DNA of 64,000 nt from an uncultured Alphaproteobacteria bacterium (GCA_964017825.1 CAXHMA010000001.1:193115-257114); one strand, 5' to 3'; counted from the stretch's first letter, positions 28,980 to 41,999 are shown. A program made the numbers and translations. Notes: generated from the letters alone by a model not told the origin.

Positions 28980-30446
28980 TCAAAAAGGCTTAAACAATCT
29001 GTCCCATTCCACATTGTTGCTGACAATAAACGCCGCTGCAACGCAACAGTAAGTATATGTAATTAAAGCGTTAATTGTAATACTTCCTATCTGACGCACA
29101 AAAAAATGACGGTATTTTTTAATAACCCGATGCAGAAAATTAAAAAATAAGATATACACAATCAGCTGTCCCGAAATGCCGATACCTGCCAGCGCATTTT
29201 CGTATTCCATGGCAATCCGCGGAAAAAAAGTCATCAGCAGACTGTACAGCATAATCAAAATATACGCTGTGCGCATAGCCCTTTTTTCACTCTGGCGTTT
29301 ATGAATTTTATCTTCCTTCAAACTTTCCTTGGAGAGCTTTCCGACTTCAAACCCGCGGATTTTTTTAGGTTCGGAACTTTTTTCCTTAATGGTTTTCAAG
29401 TTAGATTTCAACCGTTCTTCGGCGACGCATAAGCCGCAGCCCTTATTGGTAAAATACGCATGATTCGGATTCTTTTTACAGGTTTTAATGTTTTTCAGAA
29501 GAAAATCCAGTTCCGCCTGCCACTCTATGGCTGTCGGACGTTTCTGCCCTTTCACGAAAGCACGGTCAAAAAGTTTGAGCGTACTCTGCGGCAAAAAAGC
29601 ATGAATACTGTACGGATGCGGCGCCTGATAATCATCACCCCACATACCGTATGCATAATGGTAATGTTCGATGCGCTCCTGAATGGACAGCGCAGTATCC
29701 GAAGTTTTTTTGACCACGCCCGAAAACGGATGAATACCGTTATTAAGCAATTTAAAAATAATAACCGCCAGAGCAAACTTATCCTGCTCTTCGCCCATTT
29801 CTTCGCAGCCCTGCGTCATCCCCTCGGGATAAATATATTCCTCGCTCACAAACTCTGCCGGAAACCGCGCCTGTTCTCCCTGAATGGAAAAACCGTCGCA
29901 ATCAAAAACCGCCACCGTCATTGTTTTTTTGTAAATGGAAACATTCGCAGGTTTTAAGTCAATAATATAATGTCCGTAGCGGTGCAATGACGCAACCATC
30001 AGCGCCACGTTATATGCCGCCATAACACGGTACTCATACTTGTCGCTTAACCCGAGTTTTGCCCGCACCGCGCTCTGCATTAAATGGTCTAAAGAAACCG
30101 CTTCTTTGGTATTGATAAACGGCATGACATAGCCCACGCAATACCCTTCGTCGTCTTCCAAAACCGCTTCCGGCCACGCAATCTGCACATACTCAACCCC
30201 GCCCGCGGTAACGCTCGGTATTTGCGGGTTATTCATAACCATGGCTTCCAGCTTCAAACGGTTTGTATTGCTTTTTTGCCGTTCATGAAAGATTTTGGCA
30301 ACCTTGGCCGGCTGTCCGGCAATCTCATAAACTTTGCCGGCGGCGCCGCCTTTATTTAAAAGTCCGCCGAGCGTCAGCCGTTCAAAATGTCTGTCCGCAT
30401 AAATGGCATTATAGCTCAAATTTTTCTGTTCCGCAGCTTCGCTCAT
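28980..30446 (-). CDS. Hanks-type Ser/Thr protein kinase-like protein with C-terminal transmembrane helices (TerY-P triad kinase)
   Basis: Gly-loop 'GGAAGKVYEI', Lys 'VAKIF', catalytic loop 'IIDLKPANV', DFG-like 'DCDGF'. ATG overlaps the PP2C stop (ATGA). Confidence 0.8.
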   Translation of the reverse strand: MSEAAEQKNLSYNAIYADRHFERLTLGGLLNKGGAAGKVYEIAGQPAKVAKIFHERQKSNTNRLKLEAMVMNNPQIPSVTAGGVEYVQIAWPEAVLEDDEGYCVGYVMPFINTKEAVSLDHLMQSAVRAKLGLSDKYEYRVMAAYNVALMVASLHRYGHYIIDLKPANVSIYKKTMTVAVFDCDGFSIQGEQARFPAEFVSEEYIYPEGMTQGCEEMGEEQDKFALAVIIFKLLNNGIHPFSGVVKKTSDTALSIQERIEHYHYAYGMWGDDYQAPHPYSIHAFLPQSTLKLFDRAFVKGQKRPTAIEWQAELDFLLKNIKTCKKNPNHAYFTNKGCGLCVAEERLKSNLKTIKEKSSEPKKIRGFEVGKLSKESLKEDKIHKRQSEKRAMRTAYILIMLYSLLMTFFPRIAMEYENALAGIGISGQLIVYILFFNFLHRVIKKYRHFFVRQIGSITINALITYTYCCVAAAFIVSNNVEWDRLFKPF

Positions 30447-31216
30447 TGCAGTCCTGCCCATAAAAACGTTTTGTCATCCGAATTGAGCCTGCAGGCTTTT
30501 TGTGCATTCAGCGTATTGTTAAGAGCCTTAAGCGCACGTTCTCTGTCAGGCTCGTCGTTGAGATACCGGTTAATCGGCTCGATGAACCCTTTTTTAAGCC
30601 GATGAAAATCATCCGACAGCGCAAAATTAGTTACCCCGTCCGTCATCAAAAACAAAGCGCTTGCCTTTTCAAATTTTGTAAACCGCAGACATTCTGTCCA
30701 GTTCTTCATCGTATAAAAATATGTCTCGCAGGAAAAATTTCCGTTTGCCGGCCGCGACAATGTATAGTCGGTATAGTTTTCAGCACCGTGCAGAGCGATT
30801 CCCGCCCCGTCTCCGATATGAAAAAACACGCCGTTTTTCTTATGACAGACCACGCCGACAACCGTCGCCGAAAAATTCAATATTTCTTCTTCTCTTTTAC
30901 TTTTGTTCAGCCTGTGAATGAGCAGCCTTTCGCGCACCGATTCTATCACCCGCACCACAGCCGGTTCCACATCTTTTAACGGCGTATTAATCAAAGTATT
31001 GACCAACGCTTCGCAAATCATTTTCGCACCGATTTTACCGTATTTGGCAGAGCCGGCACCATCAGAAACCACGGCCGCCAATTTATTGCCCGAACAGGCA
31101 TATTGATAAAAATCCTGACACGGAAGTTTCTTTGCCGTATGCAGCCCCCCCGTCAGTTTTGTCGCGATAACCCTTATGTTTTTAGGCTTCCTCTTCATTC
31201 CAGCCCTCAATGTCAT
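30443..31216 (-). CDS. PP2C-family Ser/Thr phosphatase (TerY-P triad phosphatase)
   Basis: 'VVSDGAGSAKYG' and 'FLMTDGVTNF' metal-binding motifs. Confidence 0.8.
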   Translation of the reverse strand: MTLRAGMKRKPKNIRVIATKLTGGLHTAKKLPCQDFYQYACSGNKLAAVVSDGAGSAKYGKIGAKMICEALVNTLINTPLKDVEPAVVRVIESVRERLLIHRLNKSKREEEILNFSATVVGVVCHKKNGVFFHIGDGAGIALHGAENYTDYTLSRPANGNFSCETYFYTMKNWTECLRFTKFEKASALFLMTDGVTNFALSDDFHRLKKGFIEPINRYLNDEPDRERALKALNNTLNAQKACRLNSDDKTFLWAGLQ

Positions 31217-31880
31217 CCAATATGTCAGGCATATTCGGCGCCGCGCGGGAAATGCATGAAACGCTGCGCGACAACCACAGGAAAAACTCCGTAAACTTTA
31301 ACCCGCTCAAACGCTTCGGCGACATCAGCGAAAACTTCGCAAGTTTATCCAAATTGGCCCCCTGCGTTCCAACGGCATGAATAACCACCTTCTTGTTTTG
31401 CTGCGCCTCGCGGCATTTTGCCGCCGCCTGTTCCCAGCCGTAATCCGTCGGTTCACCGTCGCTGATTAAAAAAATCCATGGCCGCTTTGAGGTAATACCG
31501 CAGCTGTCATACAAACATTTTTGTTCTTCAATTTTTTGCAGCGCCAGTTCCATGGCTTTACCGATAGGCGAAAGCCCCGAAGCCTCCATAACAGGTGCCG
31601 AAAAATTCATTGCGTCAATCCAATCTGCGGAAATCTCAGCATCGTCTTTACCGTAAGCTTTAATCACCAAAAGCTGAACGCGCGAACTTGCGTCAATATC
31701 TTCTTTGAGCTCTTTCTCCAACGCCTGCAAACCGGTATTCAGCTGCTTTATCGGTTCACCGCGCATAGACCCCGAACAGTCCAAAACCAAAATACACGGT
31801 GTCCGCTCATTGGCATTTTCCGCAAATTCCACATACGGAATCATGACATCCGAAAAATCATCATTGCTGCTTTTATCCAT
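31182..31880 (-). CDS. von Willebrand factor A domain protein (TerY-like)
   Basis: MIDAS 'VLDCSGSM'. 'ISDGEPTD'. Overlaps the PP2C gene start. Confidence 0.8.
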   Translation of the reverse strand: MDKSSNDDFSDVMIPYVEFAENANERTPCILVLDCSGSMRGEPIKQLNTGLQALEKELKEDIDASSRVQLLVIKAYGKDDAEISADWIDAMNFSAPVMEASGLSPIGKAMELALQKIEEQKCLYDSCGITSKRPWIFLISDGEPTDYGWEQAAAKCREAQQNKKVVIHAVGTQGANLDKLAKFSLMSPKRLSGLKFTEFFLWLSRSVSCISRAAPNMPDILDDIEGWNEEEA

Positions 31881-33401: not shown

Positions 33402-34859
33402 TTATTTAATTTCAAGTTCTTTCTGGTTTTTGCCTTCGGCAGCATACTTCTCCAGCACAACCGCCGCTTTTTTCGGCATGGACAAACACCCCGGACCGGC
33501 AATGCATCCGCCTTCGCAGCTCATCACTTCCAGCATATTGCAACCGTCATCAAGTCCTTTAAGTGCATATTTCTTTAAATTTTTAACATTGTCTTTGGTC
33601 AAACCGTTAATCGCAAACGGGCGATAATCCGCCTTGCCGTCAATCAGGTTGGCAACAGCCGCCGCCACACCGCCGGAAAGCGCATATCGCCTTGATTGCT
33701 GAGACGCTTCATCAGCAAACGCAGACGCATCCAATGCATTAATGTCAATGCCTTTGGCCTCAAACATTGCCTGAATATCGGCAAACACCAAAACATAATC
33801 TACATTCGGGTTGCTTTCCGCTTCAATGCGTTTGGCAAGACACGGCCCGACAAACACGGTTACCGCATCCGGATAACGCTTCTTTGCGATTTCTGCCGTA
33901 TAATACATCGGGCTTCCGGTGTGCGAAACAAATTTCTCAATCTCGGGCACATGAACCTTCGCCGTTTTTACATAAGCCGGACAACATGACGTTGTCATAA
34001 ACGGTGCACCTTCTTCCATACGCTCGACAAATTCCGCCGACTCATTTTTAGATGTATATTCCGCACCGTAAGCCACTTCAATCACATCGTCAAAACCCAG
34101 CGCTTTATATGCGGCTATCACCTTGCCCAAATCATTGCCGAACTGTCCTAAAATGGCCGGCGCCACCATGGCAACCACTTTCTTTGCCGGATTCTTAATT
34201 GCATTCAGTACATCAATCATCTGCGAATTATAAACAATCGCACCGAACGGGCAGGATTGCAGACACTTGCCGCAGGATATGCACTTGTCAATATTAACTT
34301 CTTCCCTTCCTTCCGCATCTTTGCTGATGGCATTTACCGGACAAATTTCTTCACAGGGAACAACTGATTTATGGATGGCCCCATAAGGACAATAGCCCGC
34401 GCACAGCCCGCACTTGATGCACTTCTCCTGGTCAATCACTGCTTTATCCGTAACAGAAATTGCCTTCTTGGCGCAGTTTGCCTCGCACGGGCGTGCCACA
34501 CAGGCCTGACACATCGGCGTTACTTCAAACATTTTCGAACGGCAGGCATTGCACGCCGCTTTAATGACGGAAATCCCCGCCCGCGGCGCCTGAGTACGCG
34601 CCATCGCTTCTTTAACAAACTCATCCAAATCGCGATTCGCATCAACTTCCTGCGCCAAAAAGCCCATTGCCGCCAAAATCTGCCCCTTAACGGCAGCTTT
34701 TTCCGTCTCCGGATTGCGGCGGGCATTCTGCATAACCGATAATTCTGCCCAAACTTGGTTAATATCAGCCAATCCGTTCTCAATAAAAGATTTTGCCACT
34801 CTTTTTATAATTTCCGCACGAATTGGTGCCACATTGTTTTTTGCTGCAAGCATAGACAT
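33402..34859 (-). CDS. [FeFe]-hydrogenase-like protein: Cys-rich N-terminus plus 2x[4Fe-4S] ferredoxin domain plus H-cluster domain
   Basis: Ferredoxin motifs 'CIKCGLCAGYCP'/'CISCGKCLQSCP'. H-cluster motifs 'TTSCCPAY' (L1), 'GPCLAKRIE' (L2), 'EVMSCEGGCIAGPG' (L3). Confidence 0.75.
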   Translation of the reverse strand: MSMLAAKNNVAPIRAEIIKRVAKSFIENGLADINQVWAELSVMQNARRNPETEKAAVKGQILAAMGFLAQEVDANRDLDEFVKEAMARTQAPRAGISVIKAACNACRSKMFEVTPMCQACVARPCEANCAKKAISVTDKAVIDQEKCIKCGLCAGYCPYGAIHKSVVPCEEICPVNAISKDAEGREEVNIDKCISCGKCLQSCPFGAIVYNSQMIDVLNAIKNPAKKVVAMVAPAILGQFGNDLGKVIAAYKALGFDDVIEVAYGAEYTSKNESAEFVERMEEGAPFMTTSCCPAYVKTAKVHVPEIEKFVSHTGSPMYYTAEIAKKRYPDAVTVFVGPCLAKRIEAESNPNVDYVLVFADIQAMFEAKGIDINALDASAFADEASQQSRRYALSGGVAAAVANLIDGKADYRPFAINGLTKDNVKNLKKYALKGLDDGCNMLEVMSCEGGCIAGPGCLSMPKKAAVVLEKYAAEGKNQKELEIK

Positions 34860-35043: not shown

Positions 35044-35709
35044 ATGACTAGTTTTACGATTGGCGGAATCCCTTATCGGATTCTCGACATAGAAGCGGAA
35101 CGAGGCGCGCGCATCCCGCATGCCGAGCAGTACAAACCTTTCACCGAAAGAGCGCTGGAAGAAATAAAGGACATGCCGAACCACGAAAAAAATCACCAAT
35201 TTCTGGTGGCCTATTCCGTCTATGGCGATACATTCATCACCGCAGACCCGAACACTATCCTGCGCTTAAGCTTAGCCGGACAAGTCTACAACAACAGCAT
35301 CAGAAGGATGACACTGTGCGACGTACTGGCCGTCTTTTATCATGACGGTAAAAAATTTCGCCCGTTCAAAAGCTGGGAACTGCGTCATTTCAACAGCAAC
35401 GACGCCCCCGCATTCCTGGACAAGGAAAATCTGGAAGCACAACTGAAAGGAGTATTCCGCAAGGTCGACATTACGCTAGGCGCGCTGACCCTCACTACCC
35501 GATCCGTTACCTGCCCTGCCTGGCAAATTGTGACCGATAAGGGAACATACTATCTGCCTTGGCATAATGGAACAATCATCGAGGAAGACCCTGCGTTTTC
35601 CTTTGAGGAAAAAGATTTTGCCGAAATCCAAGAAACGCAGTATTACACACATCTGCGTTTCAGCAAAATCCCTCTCAGCAATCAGGCTTTCAACATCAAA
35701 AGCTGCTGA
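35044..35709 (+). CDS. Hypothetical protein (221 aa)
   Basis: ORF only. Confidence 0.5.
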   Translation: MTSFTIGGIPYRILDIEAERGARIPHAEQYKPFTERALEEIKDMPNHEKNHQFLVAYSVYGDTFITADPNTILRLSLAGQVYNNSIRRMTLCDVLAVFYHDGKKFRPFKSWELRHFNSNDAPAFLDKENLEAQLKGVFRKVDITLGALTLTTRSVTCPAWQIVTDKGTYYLPWHNGTIIEEDPAFSFEEKDFAEIQETQYYTHLRFSKIPLSNQAFNIKSC

Positions 35710-35749: not shown

Positions 35750-38700
35750 TTAAAAGGCTGCCGAAACTCCGACAATTCCGATATAATCCGTCAAACCTTT
35801 TTCGCCGTCTGCATTAAACCGCGCTGAAACCTTTCCCGTCAGGCTCAAATCTTCATTCGTTTTACCCTGATAGTACAAGCCGACATCATATTCTTTCGCT
35901 CTCGGTTTGAGCGATGTCGTCAATTTTTGCATATATATCGTATCGCTTGCCGAATCCCGCCCGTTCGCATACATCAGTGAAGCTTTGCCTTTCACAACCG
36001 AAAGCGGCGAAGAAAAACTTAACCCTATTTTATCTGTCTTGTTCAATAAATATTCGCCCGCAAGCATAAAACTCTCGCTTTCCAGATCCGATATCGCCAG
36101 CATCGGCGCGTCCGCCCCCTGCGTATAACCGCGGTAATATGCCGCAGACAGCAGAATATTCGGGGTTAGGTTCAGCGCCGCCCTGACCCCCATATAATAT
36201 GTGGAACTGTCTTTAATACCGAATGCGCCGCTGCCGTTCATACCCAACAGAGCATTGTCCTCATAGAGCATACCGCCGAGCGCCGCCACTTCCAAATAGT
36301 CTGTCATGCCGAAGCTGTATTCGCCGCTGAATGCATAAGCCCTGTCGTCAAACGAATGATTATCTTGTTCATAATCCCTTTCATACAGCCCGTTTTCACC
36401 GGTTTGCAAAGACAATTTAAGCTTGGAACTATCGCTTAATTTCAGCATATTCTCGGCACCATATGCCTCATTCATCGCCAAATACGGATTTGAAGACGGT
36501 GATAACACATTGTCCTGAGACATATATTTACTGTTGACGGCATAATAAAAGCGCGTTGCACCGTCTACCGTCTCGCTGACAACTTCCGCAACCGCCAGAT
36601 TATTCTTTCCCCCTTTGTCCAGCGTCTCTTCCGAAGCAAATTGAAAACCCGTTTTCTCATCTTTAACCACGCGTTTGCCGTTGCCCGCCGCCATTCTGGA
36701 AACGGCATTGCGCAAATCGGCATTGGAAGCATGCGTCTGATTGACAATATTTTTTGTATCATACTCAAAAGGCCGGTTAAGAGCATCAAACGCCGTCACT
36801 TTTTCCGGCATCGCGGCCATCAACTTATTCTGTACCGCCGAAGATAAGGCAAGTTTGGAACCGGAAACCGGCAAAACCTGCTCAAACGATGTTTGCGTCG
36901 GCAGTCCCAACCCGCCGATAGGCGTCGTAACCGCCGCATTCAAATCCAAAGCACCCCTGCCGTATTTGTCGCTGTTGGCATACTCGCCTTGATTATTCGC
37001 CGTTTCCAATAAAAGATACGCAACATTCTGCGCCGAAAGCCATGGATAATACCCGTTTAATAAAGCAATACTGCCCGTAACAACAGGTGTAGACATAGAC
37101 GTCCCCGATTTACCGGTAAATCCGTCTTTCATCGGCGCCGTGGATTCAACCGATGTCCCGGGGGCCGCCAGACAATAGCCTTTCGTTGAACCGCACCAGT
37201 TGGCATAACCGGCCAGTTTTCCGGAAGGCGCGTTTGCCGTTCTCGTATCATAATCAAGCGCCGTAACGGCAATAAAGGGAGCTTCATATTTTTTCGGGCC
37301 CGCATATCCTTTATCAGACAAATCCAATCTGCCCATACCGGTATGCAGATTAGATTCATGCTGCATTTCGTTTCCGGTAGCCTGCACCCATACCGCGCCG
37401 TTTTTCGCAGCATAAACATAAGCTTCCAACTCATTGCTGCCACGCAGTTTTTCAGCAGTTGTCGCATTATTTTCCGAGGTAACATCAACACCCCAGCTAT
37501 GGTTTAACACTTTAACCCCGCTATCCACCATGCTGGTAATAACAGGCTTGATATCCTGTTTCAAATCCCAGCTGGCCGCCACAAGCTCCGCATTGTCAAA
37601 CGCCACACCGTGTATGCCGTTATTATTTTTATTTGCGGCAATAATCCCGGCAACATGCGTTCCGTGGCTTAATTGGTCGATAATATTAAGCCAGCTGTTA
37701 ACAAAAACTTCCGGTCCCGTATTTATATCCGTAATAAGACCGGACATATCCGCTCCGGGATTGTGCCCGTTTCCGCTGTTTATCAATGCCAATTCACTAA
37801 ACGGTATATTCCATTTTTTCTCCACTATATTTTTCATTTCCGCTTCGCTCAAACCCAGCGTGTCATTTGCGTTTGTATAATATGTAACAATGTCGGCATC
37901 ATGAAAAACATAATACTTTGAGCCTTTCTTTATAACATAACCCTGTCCCCAGCCGTCGCGGGAAACGCCCCAAACCGAGCTATCGTTATTATAAGGGTTT
38001 GCATCTATACCGGAAACAATTTTTCCCGCCAAATCTTTATTGGCATACACACCGGAATCCAAGACGCCGACTTTAATTTTTTTCAATGCCGCTTCACTGT
38101 CTGCCTGATGACTGAACACCGCACCTGTCAGATCTTTGCGGAAGATATGGCTGTATGCGTCTGCTGCCTTGATACCTTCCAAAAAATTAGTGCGCTTATA
38201 TTCTTCTGTTCTGAATTCATCCGGCGCCATATCATCCAAATGGCCGACAGGATCTTTGACTTCGCCTCCGGGCGTTTGCACCTCGCCGCTGACGTGAGAA
38301 TGTCCGCCGCCTCCGCTGCCGGCCAATGCGGCTATTCCCGCACCGGCAGCAACAACACCGGCGGCAGCCCAATAATAACTGTTATCATTTTCAAAAAATC
38401 CGGCAGACTTTCTGAATTTAGGCTGCGTTTGATAATTGCGTTCCGCTTGCCGGAAAGCAGGAGCCTCTTCTTCCGCAACATTTTCCGCACATTTCTGAGC
38501 CGTATTCGCGCCGTATTTCTTTAACAGTTCGAGCGCTTTTTCATCATTACTCCGCAAGGCAAAGCAATAAGCCGTATTGCCGCGGGCATCCTTAATATCA
38601 ACGGCACCTTTGTACCTTGACAATGCGCGGAAATAATCATGATTGCCGGCCTGTGCCTGCTTATAAATAAGGCCCGCACTGACAGACGCGGCCGAAGCGC

Positions 38701-38764
38701 TCGGCATATACCCGCCGCAAAGAGAAATCACACCCCAAAATAATAAAGTTTTTCTAGAAATCAT
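35750..38764 (-). CDS. Autotransporter with an N-terminal ankyrin-repeat module and an S8 subtilisin-like protease passenger
   Basis: Signal peptide. ANK 'DARGNTAYCFALRSNDEKALELLKKYGAN'. S8 triad motifs 'GVLDSGV', 'HGTHVAGI', 'GTSMSTPVV'. C-terminal beta-barrel ending in F. Confidence 0.85.
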   Translation of the reverse strand: MISRKTLLFWGVISLCGGYMPSASAASVSAGLIYKQAQAGNHDYFRALSRYKGAVDIKDARGNTAYCFALRSNDEKALELLKKYGANTAQKCAENVAEEEAPAFRQAERNYQTQPKFRKSAGFFENDNSYYWAAAGVVAAGAGIAALAGSGGGGHSHVSGEVQTPGGEVKDPVGHLDDMAPDEFRTEEYKRTNFLEGIKAADAYSHIFRKDLTGAVFSHQADSEAALKKIKVGVLDSGVYANKDLAGKIVSGIDANPYNNDSSVWGVSRDGWGQGYVIKKGSKYYVFHDADIVTYYTNANDTLGLSEAEMKNIVEKKWNIPFSELALINSGNGHNPGADMSGLITDINTGPEVFVNSWLNIIDQLSHGTHVAGIIAANKNNNGIHGVAFDNAELVAASWDLKQDIKPVITSMVDSGVKVLNHSWGVDVTSENNATTAEKLRGSNELEAYVYAAKNGAVWVQATGNEMQHESNLHTGMGRLDLSDKGYAGPKKYEAPFIAVTALDYDTRTANAPSGKLAGYANWCGSTKGYCLAAPGTSVESTAPMKDGFTGKSGTSMSTPVVTGSIALLNGYYPWLSAQNVAYLLLETANNQGEYANSDKYGRGALDLNAAVTTPIGGLGLPTQTSFEQVLPVSGSKLALSSAVQNKLMAAMPEKVTAFDALNRPFEYDTKNIVNQTHASNADLRNAVSRMAAGNGKRVVKDEKTGFQFASEETLDKGGKNNLAVAEVVSETVDGATRFYYAVNSKYMSQDNVLSPSSNPYLAMNEAYGAENMLKLSDSSKLKLSLQTGENGLYERDYEQDNHSFDDRAYAFSGEYSFGMTDYLEVAALGGMLYEDNALLGMNGSGAFGIKDSSTYYMGVRAALNLTPNILLSAAYYRGYTQGADAPMLAISDLESESFMLAGEYLLNKTDKIGLSFSSPLSVVKGKASLMYANGRDSASDTIYMQKLTTSLKPRAKEYDVGLYYQGKTNEDLSLTGKVSARFNADGEKGLTDYIGIVGVSAAF

Positions 38765-38831
38765 AACCGGCTCCGAATTTTATTTTTTACCAGTATAAAA
38801 CCAAATTGCTAAAAAAACTTTAAGAGTATAT

Positions 38832-41288: not shown

Positions 41289-41999
41289 TTAAGCCTTAGC
41301 CGCATCTTTTCTCGGACGGCCGCGTTTCTTCGGCGCCTCATCGGCTTTAACTTTGGCCGGGCGCCCGCGCTTCTTGGGAGCCGTTTCAACCTTTGCTTTC
41401 GCCGGACGACCGCGTTTTTTCGGTGCCGCAGTTGCTTTTTTTGCCTTTTTCTTTTTGCCCTTGTTTTCTTTTAGCTCAGCCTGTTGACGCGAAATCAGCA
41501 TAGCCTTTTCCAAATCTTTTTCAGAGCAAAGACCGACTGCCATCGGGTTAATCGGGCGCAGGTTTGCCATATTGCCGTGCGTTCCTTCGCGGATAGACGT
41601 AATCGTCGGCTTTGTCGTACCGATAAGTTTGCAAATCTGCGAATCCATAACTTCCGGACAATTTTTGATAATCCACAAAACCGCATTCGGCTTTTCCGCA
41701 CGCTGTGTCGGCGAAAGGACCTTCTTTGCCTTTGCGTTTCTTTCTTTAACATTCTTTTCCAGCGGTGTCGCCGTCAAAACGGCTTTTTCGTCAGCTTCGC
41801 AGCGTTTAATCTCTTCTGCGGACAACTGTCCGTTGGAAATCGGGCTGACGCCCAGAATATTATAGGCAATATCGCCGTCCGCAATAGCCTGAATTTCCAA
41901 CTCGTGCAGTTCGCAGAAATCCGCAATCTGTTTAAAAGTCAGGGTTGTATTTTCAACCAACCAGACCGCTGTTGCCTTAGGCATTAAAGGTGCTGTCAT
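41289..41999 (-). CDS. DUF1013-family alphaproteobacterial protein with C-terminal AT-hook repeats (KKRGRPAK x3)
   Basis: 'MPKATAVWLVENTTLTFKQIADFC' conserved N-terminus. Minus-strand terminator at 41238-41262. Confidence 0.75.
   Translation of the reverse strand: MTAPLMPKATAVWLVENTTLTFKQIADFCELHELEIQAIADGDIAYNILGVSPISNGQLSAEEIKRCEADEKAVLTATPLEKNVKERNAKAKKVLSPTQRAEKPNAVLWIIKNCPEVMDSQICKLIGTTKPTITSIREGTHGNMANLRPINPMAVGLCSEKDLEKAMLISRQQAELKENKGKKKKAKKATAAPKKRGRPAKAKVETAPKKRGRPAKVKADEAPKKRGRPRKDAAKA

Follow-up and report, generated by a model that had tools for sequence, protein, structure and literature searches.

Locus and domain order

The gene described here occupies positions 35,750 to 38,764 on the minus strand of a 64,000-nucleotide stretch of DNA from an uncultured Alphaproteobacteria bacterium (GCA_964017825.1, CAXHMA010000001.1:193115-257114; the whole stretch is called the window below), and it encodes a protein of 1004 amino acids (aa) that we rate as a self-anchored outer-membrane subtilase. 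From the N-terminus, the protein comprises a signal peptide, an ankyrin module of two repeats, a spacer, a hydrophobic element with poly-Gly, a linker, a subtilisin (S8) domain, a pre-barrel region and a beta-barrel (Table 1). A first-pass annotation made from the sequence had placed an ankyrin module, an S8 passenger and a barrel in this gene, with a hydrophobic Gly/Ala-rich stretch behind the ankyrin repeats, and it had reckoned with the chance that profile searches would show no ankyrin or S8 domain or that a frameshift would make the N-terminal module a separate gene. The three modules and the stretch, which corresponds to residues 130-154, were all found within one intact gene, so these doubts fall away. 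In the open reading frame (ORF) list the frame is uninterrupted, an identical protein (P0001) is recorded in the NCBI metagenome-assembled genome (MAG) GCA_965648045.1, and the same layout recurs in more than 60 full-length homologues, the gene in the window being free of frameshifts. A frameshift, a fusion artefact or a pseudogene is ruled out by the intact ORF together with a layout kept in more than 150 clusters. Scans of the locus for promoters and terminators gave signal no higher than the shuffled expectation.

Table 1. Features of the ankyrin-S8-barrel gene, with positions counted from the first nucleotide of the window
Feature	Residues	Position	Strand	Evidence or remark
Shine-Dalgarno-like GGAG, 6 nt upstream of the ATG		38771..38774	minus	direct sequence reading
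Whole gene, ankyrin / S8 / barrel protein	1-1004	35750..38764	minus	ORF list; stop codon 35750-35752
Predicted Sec (type I) signal peptide, MISRK-TLLFWGVISLCGG-YMPSASA/A	1-25	38690..38764	minus	sequence inspection
Degenerate two-repeat ankyrin module	30-95	38480..38677	minus	family profile, Pfam Ank_2, AlphaFold
Charged, mostly basic spacer	96-128	38381..38479	minus	20-40 aa, 15.5% pairwise identity, pLDDT <50
Ala/Gly-rich hydrophobic element and poly-Gly, YYWAAAGVVAAGAGIAALAGSGGGG	130-154	38303..38377	minus	conservation, register
Low-complexity linker	155-180	38225..38302	minus	16-79 aa in orthologues
Subtilisin (S8) domain	181-615	36920..38224	minus	Pfam, invariant residues, fold
Catalytic D236 (VGVLDSG)	236	38057-38059	minus	invariant in 37 homologues
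Beta-rich insertion between catalytic Asp and His	249-345	37730..38020	minus	AlphaFold, alignment
Catalytic H367 (first His of HGTHVAG)	367	37664-37666	minus	invariant in 37 homologues
Oxyanion N465 (ATGNE)	465	37370-37372	minus	invariant in 37 homologues
Catalytic S556 (GTSMSTP)	556	37097-37099	minus	invariant in 37 homologues
Pre-barrel alpha/beta region	616-700	36665..36919	minus	AlphaFold secondary structure; constant 87-89 aa
Predicted outer-membrane beta-barrel, ~16 strands	701-1004	35753..36664	minus	AlphaFold, Foldseek

The N-terminus carries a putative Sec signal peptide. By inspection, a basic n-region, an h-region of 12-15 aa and an AxA-like c-region are present in all 37 homologues, and AlphaFold models residues 1-25 with a predicted local distance difference test (pLDDT) below 50. 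The ISLC motif within this segment is no lipobox, because C16 is preceded by Leu at position -1 and is not itself conserved, and a lipoprotein at the N-terminus was rejected accordingly.

The ankyrin identity of residues 30-95 is weak when judged from the single sequence and solid for the family. On the single sequence, Ank_2 scores 16.8 bits with the whole protein and 22.5 bits with the module alone, below the gathering score of 27.3. The first-pass annotation was nevertheless borne out by the family: Ank_2 is matched individually by 28 of 29 members, and a profile of 73 columns built from 29 homologues matches 502 PDB chains (best E=3.2e-37), all 60 of those listed being ankyrins or DARPins. 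The full-length AlphaFold model adds two helix-turn-helix pairs in residues 30-83 (helices 30-38, 42-48, 65-71 and 75-83; pLDDT 81-88). The consensus of ankyrins and DARPins aligns over ~55 residues of the module and covers the helix pair, the GxT motif and LLxxGA(N/D); in contrast to it, the module here has about two repeats in a constant 68 aa among orthologues, reads TAYC in place of TPLH, carries two invariant Cys and is exported, as predicted, behind a Sec signal. The two Cys are 25 residues apart: C67 corresponds to the His of TPLH, C92 to the position right behind the repeat. The module probably folds in an oxidising compartment with a C67-C92 disulfide as a staple. Relatives P0067, P0068 and P0089 have three or four canonical repeats according to precomputed Pfam Ank families, and canonical-repeat relatives such as P0068 and P0089 are without the Cys pair.

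The S8 domain was likewise confirmed as a subtilase with a complete triad. Pfam PF00082 (Peptidase_S8) matches residues 228-604 at E=4e-34, with 118.7 bits against a cut-off of 21.8, and D236, H367 and S556 are invariant. Judged by its sequence, the full catalytic triad in the order Asp-His-Ser is intact together with the oxyanion Asn, and the protein is thus a predicted protease. The domain is modelled with a pLDDT of ~90 and reaches TM-scores (TMt) of ~0.8 to subtilisins. The insertion of ~97 residues between the catalytic Asp and His is well modelled (pLDDT 86-92), is the most variable folded part of the protein (30% identity) and is lacking in distant relatives such as P0068; it may be a determinant of substrate specificity. 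The closest S8 domain both by sequence (E=1.6e-15) and by fold (E=5.6e-16) is that of Ssp of Serratia marcescens (8e7f), and Ssp, EprS and fusolisin are the nearest S8 relatives, the NCBIfam models for EprS and fusolisin matching the protease part only. Ssp shares the motif before the catalytic Asp and a short disulfide loop by the last strand, where its Cys288-Cys295 corresponds to the conserved pair C524/C531 of our protein. In contrast, the 248-residue beta-helix of Ssp, with its PATR and autochaperone regions, and its type Va translocator have no counterpart here, whereas our protein has a 97-residue Asp-His insertion and only ~85 residues between S8 and barrel.

The pre-barrel region and the barrel

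The S8-to-barrel gap of ~85 residues has mixed alpha/beta structure and contains a conserved helix at about residues 679-693 (THASNANLRNAVSRMA in the consensus), ahead of the first barrel strand. Its order of secondary-structure elements differs from the beta-alpha-alpha-beta-beta order of POTRA domains. When residues 612-1004 were modelled separately, AlphaFold returned a pLDDT of 84.1 and a predicted TM-score (pTM) of 0.81, with a small alpha/beta region, one helix and ~16 long strands as assigned by DSSP. The C-terminus, ...YIGIVGVSAAF, has alternating hydrophobic residues and a terminal Phe, and across the family the last residue is F, W or Y. On the strength of this model the C-terminal module (C-module) is a predicted outer-membrane beta-barrel, closed and antiparallel and with a C-terminal aromatic beta-signal.

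Against the PDB, Foldseek gave 52 matches to the barrel at E<=1e-3. The best was V. cholerae OmpT (E=3.8e-6, TMt 0.55), and the next were Omp32, OmpC, OprO/OprP and PgaA (4y25, TMt 0.50); no Omp85-type barrel appears among the 50 fold matches listed. The 12-stranded EspP (TMt 0.29-0.40) and the 14-stranded FadL (0.31-0.36) rank below the 16-stranded porins. The 16-stranded porins (V. cholerae OmpT, OmpC, Omp32 and OprP) and the PgaA barrel reach TMt values of 0.50-0.55 but are only 7-14% identical, and scores of ~0.5 to porins and PgaA point to a shared barrel size class, not to homology. PgaA has a helical-repeat domain N-terminal to its barrel, and porins are not known to be fused to enzymes.

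The sequence searches agree that this barrel lies outside the described families. In 21 C-module members PF03797 was unmatched at E<=1, and POTRA or Omp85 families also gave no match at that threshold, with sporadic weak porin-like matches only; no NCBIfam model matches the barrel module, the C-module profile finds no solved structure among PDB sequences even at E<=10, and hhalign gives a probability of 0.11% for an alignment of the C-module with the PF03797-bearing beta-domain of the subtilase autotransporter P0072. PATR repeats gave no Pfam match, and the AlphaFold model contains no beta-helix stalk. A type Va translocator is a 12-stranded barrel, whereas type Vd combines 16 strands with a single POTRA domain and a lipase as passenger (PMC6555100). 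Pfam and NCBIfam scans, the PDB profile search, hhalign and the fold ranking together led to the rejection of a classical type Va barrel, so that of the type Va autotransporter in the first-pass annotation the C-terminal beta-barrel stands, while the class does not: the barrel is not of the PF03797 type, has ~16 strands and follows no beta-helix. Type Vd proteins (PlpD, FplA) likewise have a passenger enzyme fused to a C-terminal 16-stranded barrel, as is predicted here, but with one POTRA, an Omp85/TpsB-like barrel and patatin-like lipase passengers, whereas our protein has S8 and no match to a POTRA family (PMC6555100). Type Vd was therefore ruled out as well, there being no POTRA domain, no Omp85-like barrel and an S8 domain in place of the lipase. 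The barrel is real but unclassified, and by the published definitions it is neither type Va nor type Vd.

The barrel is also the most conserved module of the protein (70% identity). Its long, predicted outward loops, among them GLYERDYEQDNHSFDD and DNALLGMNGSGAFGIKD, match the strands in conservation (0.70-0.93 per column), and an E-x4-LG motif after strand 7 is invariant even in relatives that are 20% identical. These loops may be tucked into the lumen or make contact with the passenger.

The hydrophobic element and the protein family

A search with the C-module profile returned ~3,300 clusters (50% identity) at E<=1e-3 and 2,345 at E<=1e-10, the match extending to the C-terminus in every cluster. 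The top 150 representatives were sorted with local hidden Markov models (HMMs) of the three modules, and 118 of them are complete at the N-terminus. All 118 carry S8, the entries without it being short fragments in every case; an ankyrin-like module is present in 86 and a different N-terminal domain ahead of the same hydrophobic/poly-Gly element in 14, and two start with a lipoprotein signal and poly-Gly. Many more distant homologues, of 828-863 aa, begin directly with a lipoprotein signal. An HMM made from the close orthologues only still detects the C-modules of the lipoprotein-type relatives P0078 (1e-16) and P0096 (3e-11), which shows that the relationship is not an alignment artefact. The search in other genomes that the first-pass annotation had called for thus found the ankyrin / S8 / barrel layout to be widespread; the combination of ankyrin and S8, which had been called unusual there, is no peculiarity of this gene but the dominant layout of a large family. 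The databases name the family proteins only "S8 family serine peptidase", and in the literature we found no description of ankyrin-S8-barrel proteins or of the barrel family.

Close orthologues are present at 46 loci of GTDB species genomes; apart from a single short contig assigned to a Clostridia bin, these loci lie in uncultured gut Alphaproteobacteria MAGs (humans, mice, ruminants). Broken down by module, pairwise identity is 70% in the barrel, 58% in the S8 core, 57% in the pre-barrel region, 55% in the hydrophobic element, 47% in the ankyrin module, 30% in the S8 insertion and 15-22% in the spacers on either side of the element, which also vary in length. The linker of residues 155-180 exceeds 300 aa in P0049, and in P0162, P0164 and P0172 its place is taken by Cys-rich repeats resembling epidermal growth factor (EGF) modules. 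These last three relatives (1480-2019 aa) bear teneurin-like EGF arrays between the hydrophobic/poly-Gly element and S8, with matches to PF25024, PF23106 and PF07974 and ~11% Cys.

The element itself is 25-26 aa long in 35 of 35 close orthologues. To judge by the alignment, it is under purifying selection at constant length and is a conserved unit; the first-pass annotation was right to single out the stretch, which is no passive linker. A pattern search missed the element in 18 ankyrin-bearing representatives, and a hydropathy scan recovered it in 13 of 13 checked. It consists almost entirely of Gly, Ala and Val, with poly-Gly immediately after; in the close family basic residues lie on its N-terminal side. 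Its Kyte-Doolittle value KD(19) of 1.58 is the maximum of the protein and rises to 2.2 in relatives, and its unweighted Hessa sum is +3.8 kcal/mol (+0.5 to +4.6 across the members bearing an internal element). In the AlphaFold model residues 97-168 are unstructured (pLDDT 25-35), and the element, at ~25, has no secondary structure. Three relatives (P0069, P0074, P0092) have a non-ankyrin, probably helical N-terminal domain of ~150 aa, then the same hydrophobic/poly-Gly element and S8; these proteins are low in complexity and rich in Lys and Asn, and at least one comes from a Tara Oceans sample. The retained element behind a non-ankyrin domain indicates that one N-terminal module can take the place of another without loss of the element.

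Relative to the S8 start motif FxTxEY, the element sits where the ankyrin-less relatives have a lipoprotein signal peptide and poly-Gly. The internal register reads h-region, ALA(G/S), GGGG, linker, FxTxEY ... VGVxDSG, and that of the lipoprotein-type relatives reads M..., h-region, LCGC, GGGGGG, linker, FETDEY. Relatives without an N-terminal module have LCGC, LVSC or LTAC and then poly-Gly at the true N-terminus. The signal and poly-Gly of these relatives presumably resemble the corresponding sequence of NalP. The lipobox is defined as [LVI][ASTVI][GAS]C with an invariant Cys (PMC5472700). In our protein the element ends in ALAGSGGGG, which has no Cys, and in none of 154 family members does a Cys lie 4 residues or fewer from the element's first run of Gly. 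Because the lipobox Cys is missing here and in all 154 members scanned, the internal element is not lipidated, and a lipoprotein at this position is ruled out.

Location of the protease and neighbouring genes

The interpretation that we favour, and to which we give about an even chance, is a Sec-exported subtilase fused to its own barrel of ~16 strands and likely displayed at the surface, with the element as a non-lipid tether and the ankyrin module as a binding module. The N-terminal Sec signal would direct export and be cleaved after ASA25, and the barrel would insert into the outer membrane. The element would be exported with the rest of the chain and, in the mature protein, would serve as a membrane tether standing in for the N-terminal lipid that keeps NalP at the membrane, such that S8 is shown at the cell surface in an autotransporter-like manner and the disulfide-stapled ankyrin module binds a partner or a substrate on a flexible tether. 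As to its origin, the ancestor may have been a lipoprotein-type S8-barrel protein, to which a new signal peptide and a binding module (of ankyrin type in our protein; EGF repeats or another helical domain in relatives) would have been added ahead of the old signal; the latter would then have lost its Cys and become the internal element. Surface display is favoured because the S8 domain belongs to the secreted autotransporter-subtilase lineage, parts of the passenger evolve fast and the N-terminal modules are swappable. In fact, the ankyrin module and the S8 insertion evolve faster than the barrel and the gene faster than its neighbours (between genomes, 45-60% identity in the S8 protein and 65-88% in the syntenic neighbours), as is expected for exposed passengers. 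The functionally nearest proteins, besides Ssp/EprS, are the lipoprotein subtilase autotransporters NalP of Neisseria meningitidis and SphB1 of Bordetella, in which S8 is likewise fused to its own C-terminal outer-membrane barrel. The NalP barrel, however, is of type Va with 12 strands and is unrelated by sequence to the ~16-stranded one found here, and, unlike in NalP and SphB1, the hydrophobic segment lies inside the chain, behind a separate signal peptide and an ankyrin module, and has no lipobox Cys. The NalP passenger is kept at the surface via its N-terminal lipid anchor (PMC5472700).

Several observations weigh against this interpretation, and part of them speak for its main rival, possible though clearly less probable, in which the protein is a periplasmic protease tethered to the outer membrane: the barrel would be a mere anchor or channel, and ankyrin module, linker and S8 would all be periplasmic. 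The element, or the lipid of the relatives, would then lie in the periplasm-facing leaflet, and the protease, pinned at both ends, would act on periplasmic or outer-membrane substrates. Where the first strand of a barrel begins on the periplasmic side, a domain ahead of it stays in the periplasm by default, as is the case for the N-terminal repeats of PgaA- and BcsC-type proteins, whose C-terminus is a 16-stranded barrel; the fold search matched PgaA. The invariant pair of ankyrin Cys, 25 residues apart, and the Cys-rich EGF repeats (~11% Cys) between element and S8 in some relatives suit an oxidising compartment and would be awkward to thread through a barrel; folded, disulfide-bonded modules pass barrels with difficulty, which favours a periplasmic location. 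There is, in addition, no beta-helix or autochaperone, and the predicted external loops of the barrel are conserved like the strands, which is unusual for exposed loops. With residues 97-168 unstructured, the model lends no support to any packing or insertion of the element. Its derivation from a lipoprotein signal is suggested by position and composition, which would fit a change in either direction, and no intermediate with a retained Cys was seen among the 154 members; moreover, all relatives are from uncultured organisms. A precedent for the periplasmic arrangement is RapL (PMC10414592), a lipoprotein protease of the periplasm that works on the periplasmic side of barrels; RapL of Rickettsia is unrelated to our protein. 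What stands against a periplasmic protease is the secreted autotransporter-subtilase lineage of its S8, the much faster evolution of the gene, above all of the ankyrin module and the S8 insertion, than of the neighbouring housekeeping genes, the ankyrin and EGF modules, which are typical of host-facing proteins in what is here a gut-associated lineage, and the conserved helix directly ahead of the barrel, as in autotransporters.

Other arrangements are less probable. In an arrested hairpin, which we regard as unlikely, the ankyrin module, locked by its disulfide, would fold in the periplasm and halt translocation of the passenger, the element and poly-Gly would lie in the barrel lumen beside the C-terminal linker, and S8 would form a giant surface loop. 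A 16-strand barrel, wider than that of type Va, would accommodate this, and the invariant C67/C92 pair, the constant length of an element made almost wholly of Gly, Ala and Val with poly-Gly directly after it, and its place immediately behind the N-terminal module, of whatever kind, are consistent with it; the arrangement is nevertheless deduced throughout, AlphaFold leaves the element unplaced (pLDDT ~25), the Cys-rich repeats of the EGF-bearing relatives would need to cross the membrane, and an ordinary cleaved signal peptide occupies the same position in the lipoprotein-type relatives. Classical type Va export, in which a 12-stranded PF03797 barrel with a helix in its pore would export the entire N-terminal part including the ankyrin module, would account for the order of signal, S8 passenger and C-terminal barrel with its final Phe, as well as for an S8 nearest to autotransporter subtilases and a helix ahead of the barrel. 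It is very improbable, since PF03797 was never matched, no solved autotransporter barrel was matched by sequence, hhalign gave the 0.11% already mentioned, the model has ~16 strands with porins ranking above EspP, and neither beta-helix nor PATR is present, unlike in Ssp. Least credible of all is that the element stops transfer as a helix in the inner membrane (type I topology), in which case S8 and the C-terminal domain would be cytoplasmic, or that the gene is a fusion artefact or pseudogene. The hydropathy maximum of the protein does fall on the element, but this segment would hardly stop translocation in the inner membrane because it is too rich in Gly and Ala, its sums on the biological scale are positive and its hydrophobicity is marginal; the basic residues, which in the close family lie on its N-terminal side (periplasmic in this orientation), oppose the positive-inside rule. 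Neither a barrel ending in an aromatic signal nor an S8 domain whose relatives are exported behind a lipoprotein signal can work in the cytoplasm, and a stop-transfer topology was rejected as incompatible with both.

Going further than the surface-displayed subtilase that we favour, the family might form an undescribed class of self-anchored display or secretion, with a POTRA-less 16-strand barrel unrelated to known type V systems, an uncleaved, signal-peptide-like element that threads the barrel, with the ankyrin module periplasmic and the protease outside, or replaces the lipid anchor, and N-terminal modules swapped before a constant protease-barrel core; we hold this to be rather doubtful. 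If surface display and self-anchoring are true, thousands of "S8 family serine peptidase" annotations would hide a separate mode of protease attachment to the outer membrane, among them a gene syntenic across the retrieved human, mouse and ruminant gut Alphaproteobacteria MAGs, and the internal element would be a testable case of the reuse of a lipoprotein signal after the gain of a new export signal and a binding module. The barrel is invisible to autotransporter surveys because it has no Pfam or NCBIfam model. That N-terminal modules can be swapped, and that the ankyrin module and the S8 insertion evolve fast, suggests a function directed at the host or the community in an uncultured and little-known gut lineage, and the barrel might be of interest for surface-display engineering, since relatives appear to tolerate Cys-rich modules.

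The gene lies in a conserved synteny block of TrcR, a 132-aa unknown, an alpha/beta-hydrolase, NUDIX, S8, a 221-aa unknown and an [FeFe]-hydrogenase-like gene. No dedicated partner gene (translocator, Slam-like or TpsB-like) was found in this block or beside two distant relatives. The gene of P0068 directly follows a YdbH-like / Lipoprotein_19 (YnbE-like) / DUF1318 cluster and is followed by a 281-aa unknown ORF (L048, 522-5262); the YdbH-like / YnbE-like / DUF1318 cluster is tied to outer-membrane lipid homeostasis in E. coli. No S8-barrel paralogue was found within the window. In L044 and L047 a second one lies just past the hydrogenase-like gene (at ~4600-5900 in each), and paralogue pairs also share single contigs (P0021/P0036 and P0032/P0047). 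Contigs often end inside S8-barrel genes, which suggests that paralogous repeats disturb their assembly.

Convergent with the S8 gene is the 221-aa ORF (35044-35709, plus strand), which matches no Pfam family and has no obvious signal peptide. It is always syntenic, yet is 27-40% identical where the flanking genes are 65-88% identical, such that its rate of evolution is at least that of the S8 protein. The [FeFe]-hydrogenase-like protein (33402-34859, minus strand) has Fe_hyd_lg_C and several 4Fe-4S domains and is 68-88% conserved across the lineage; such a gene in an alphaproteobacterium fits an anaerobic gut lifestyle. Three genes that overlap or adjoin one another at 28980-31880 (minus strand) code for a protein with a weak VWA domain, for a PP2C phosphatase and for a Ser/Thr kinase, and look like a eukaryote-like signalling cassette. 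On the other side of the S8 gene, at 41289-41999 (minus strand), lies the TrcR-family cell-cycle regulator, whose C-terminal tail consists of three AT-hook-like KKRGRP(A/R)K repeats.

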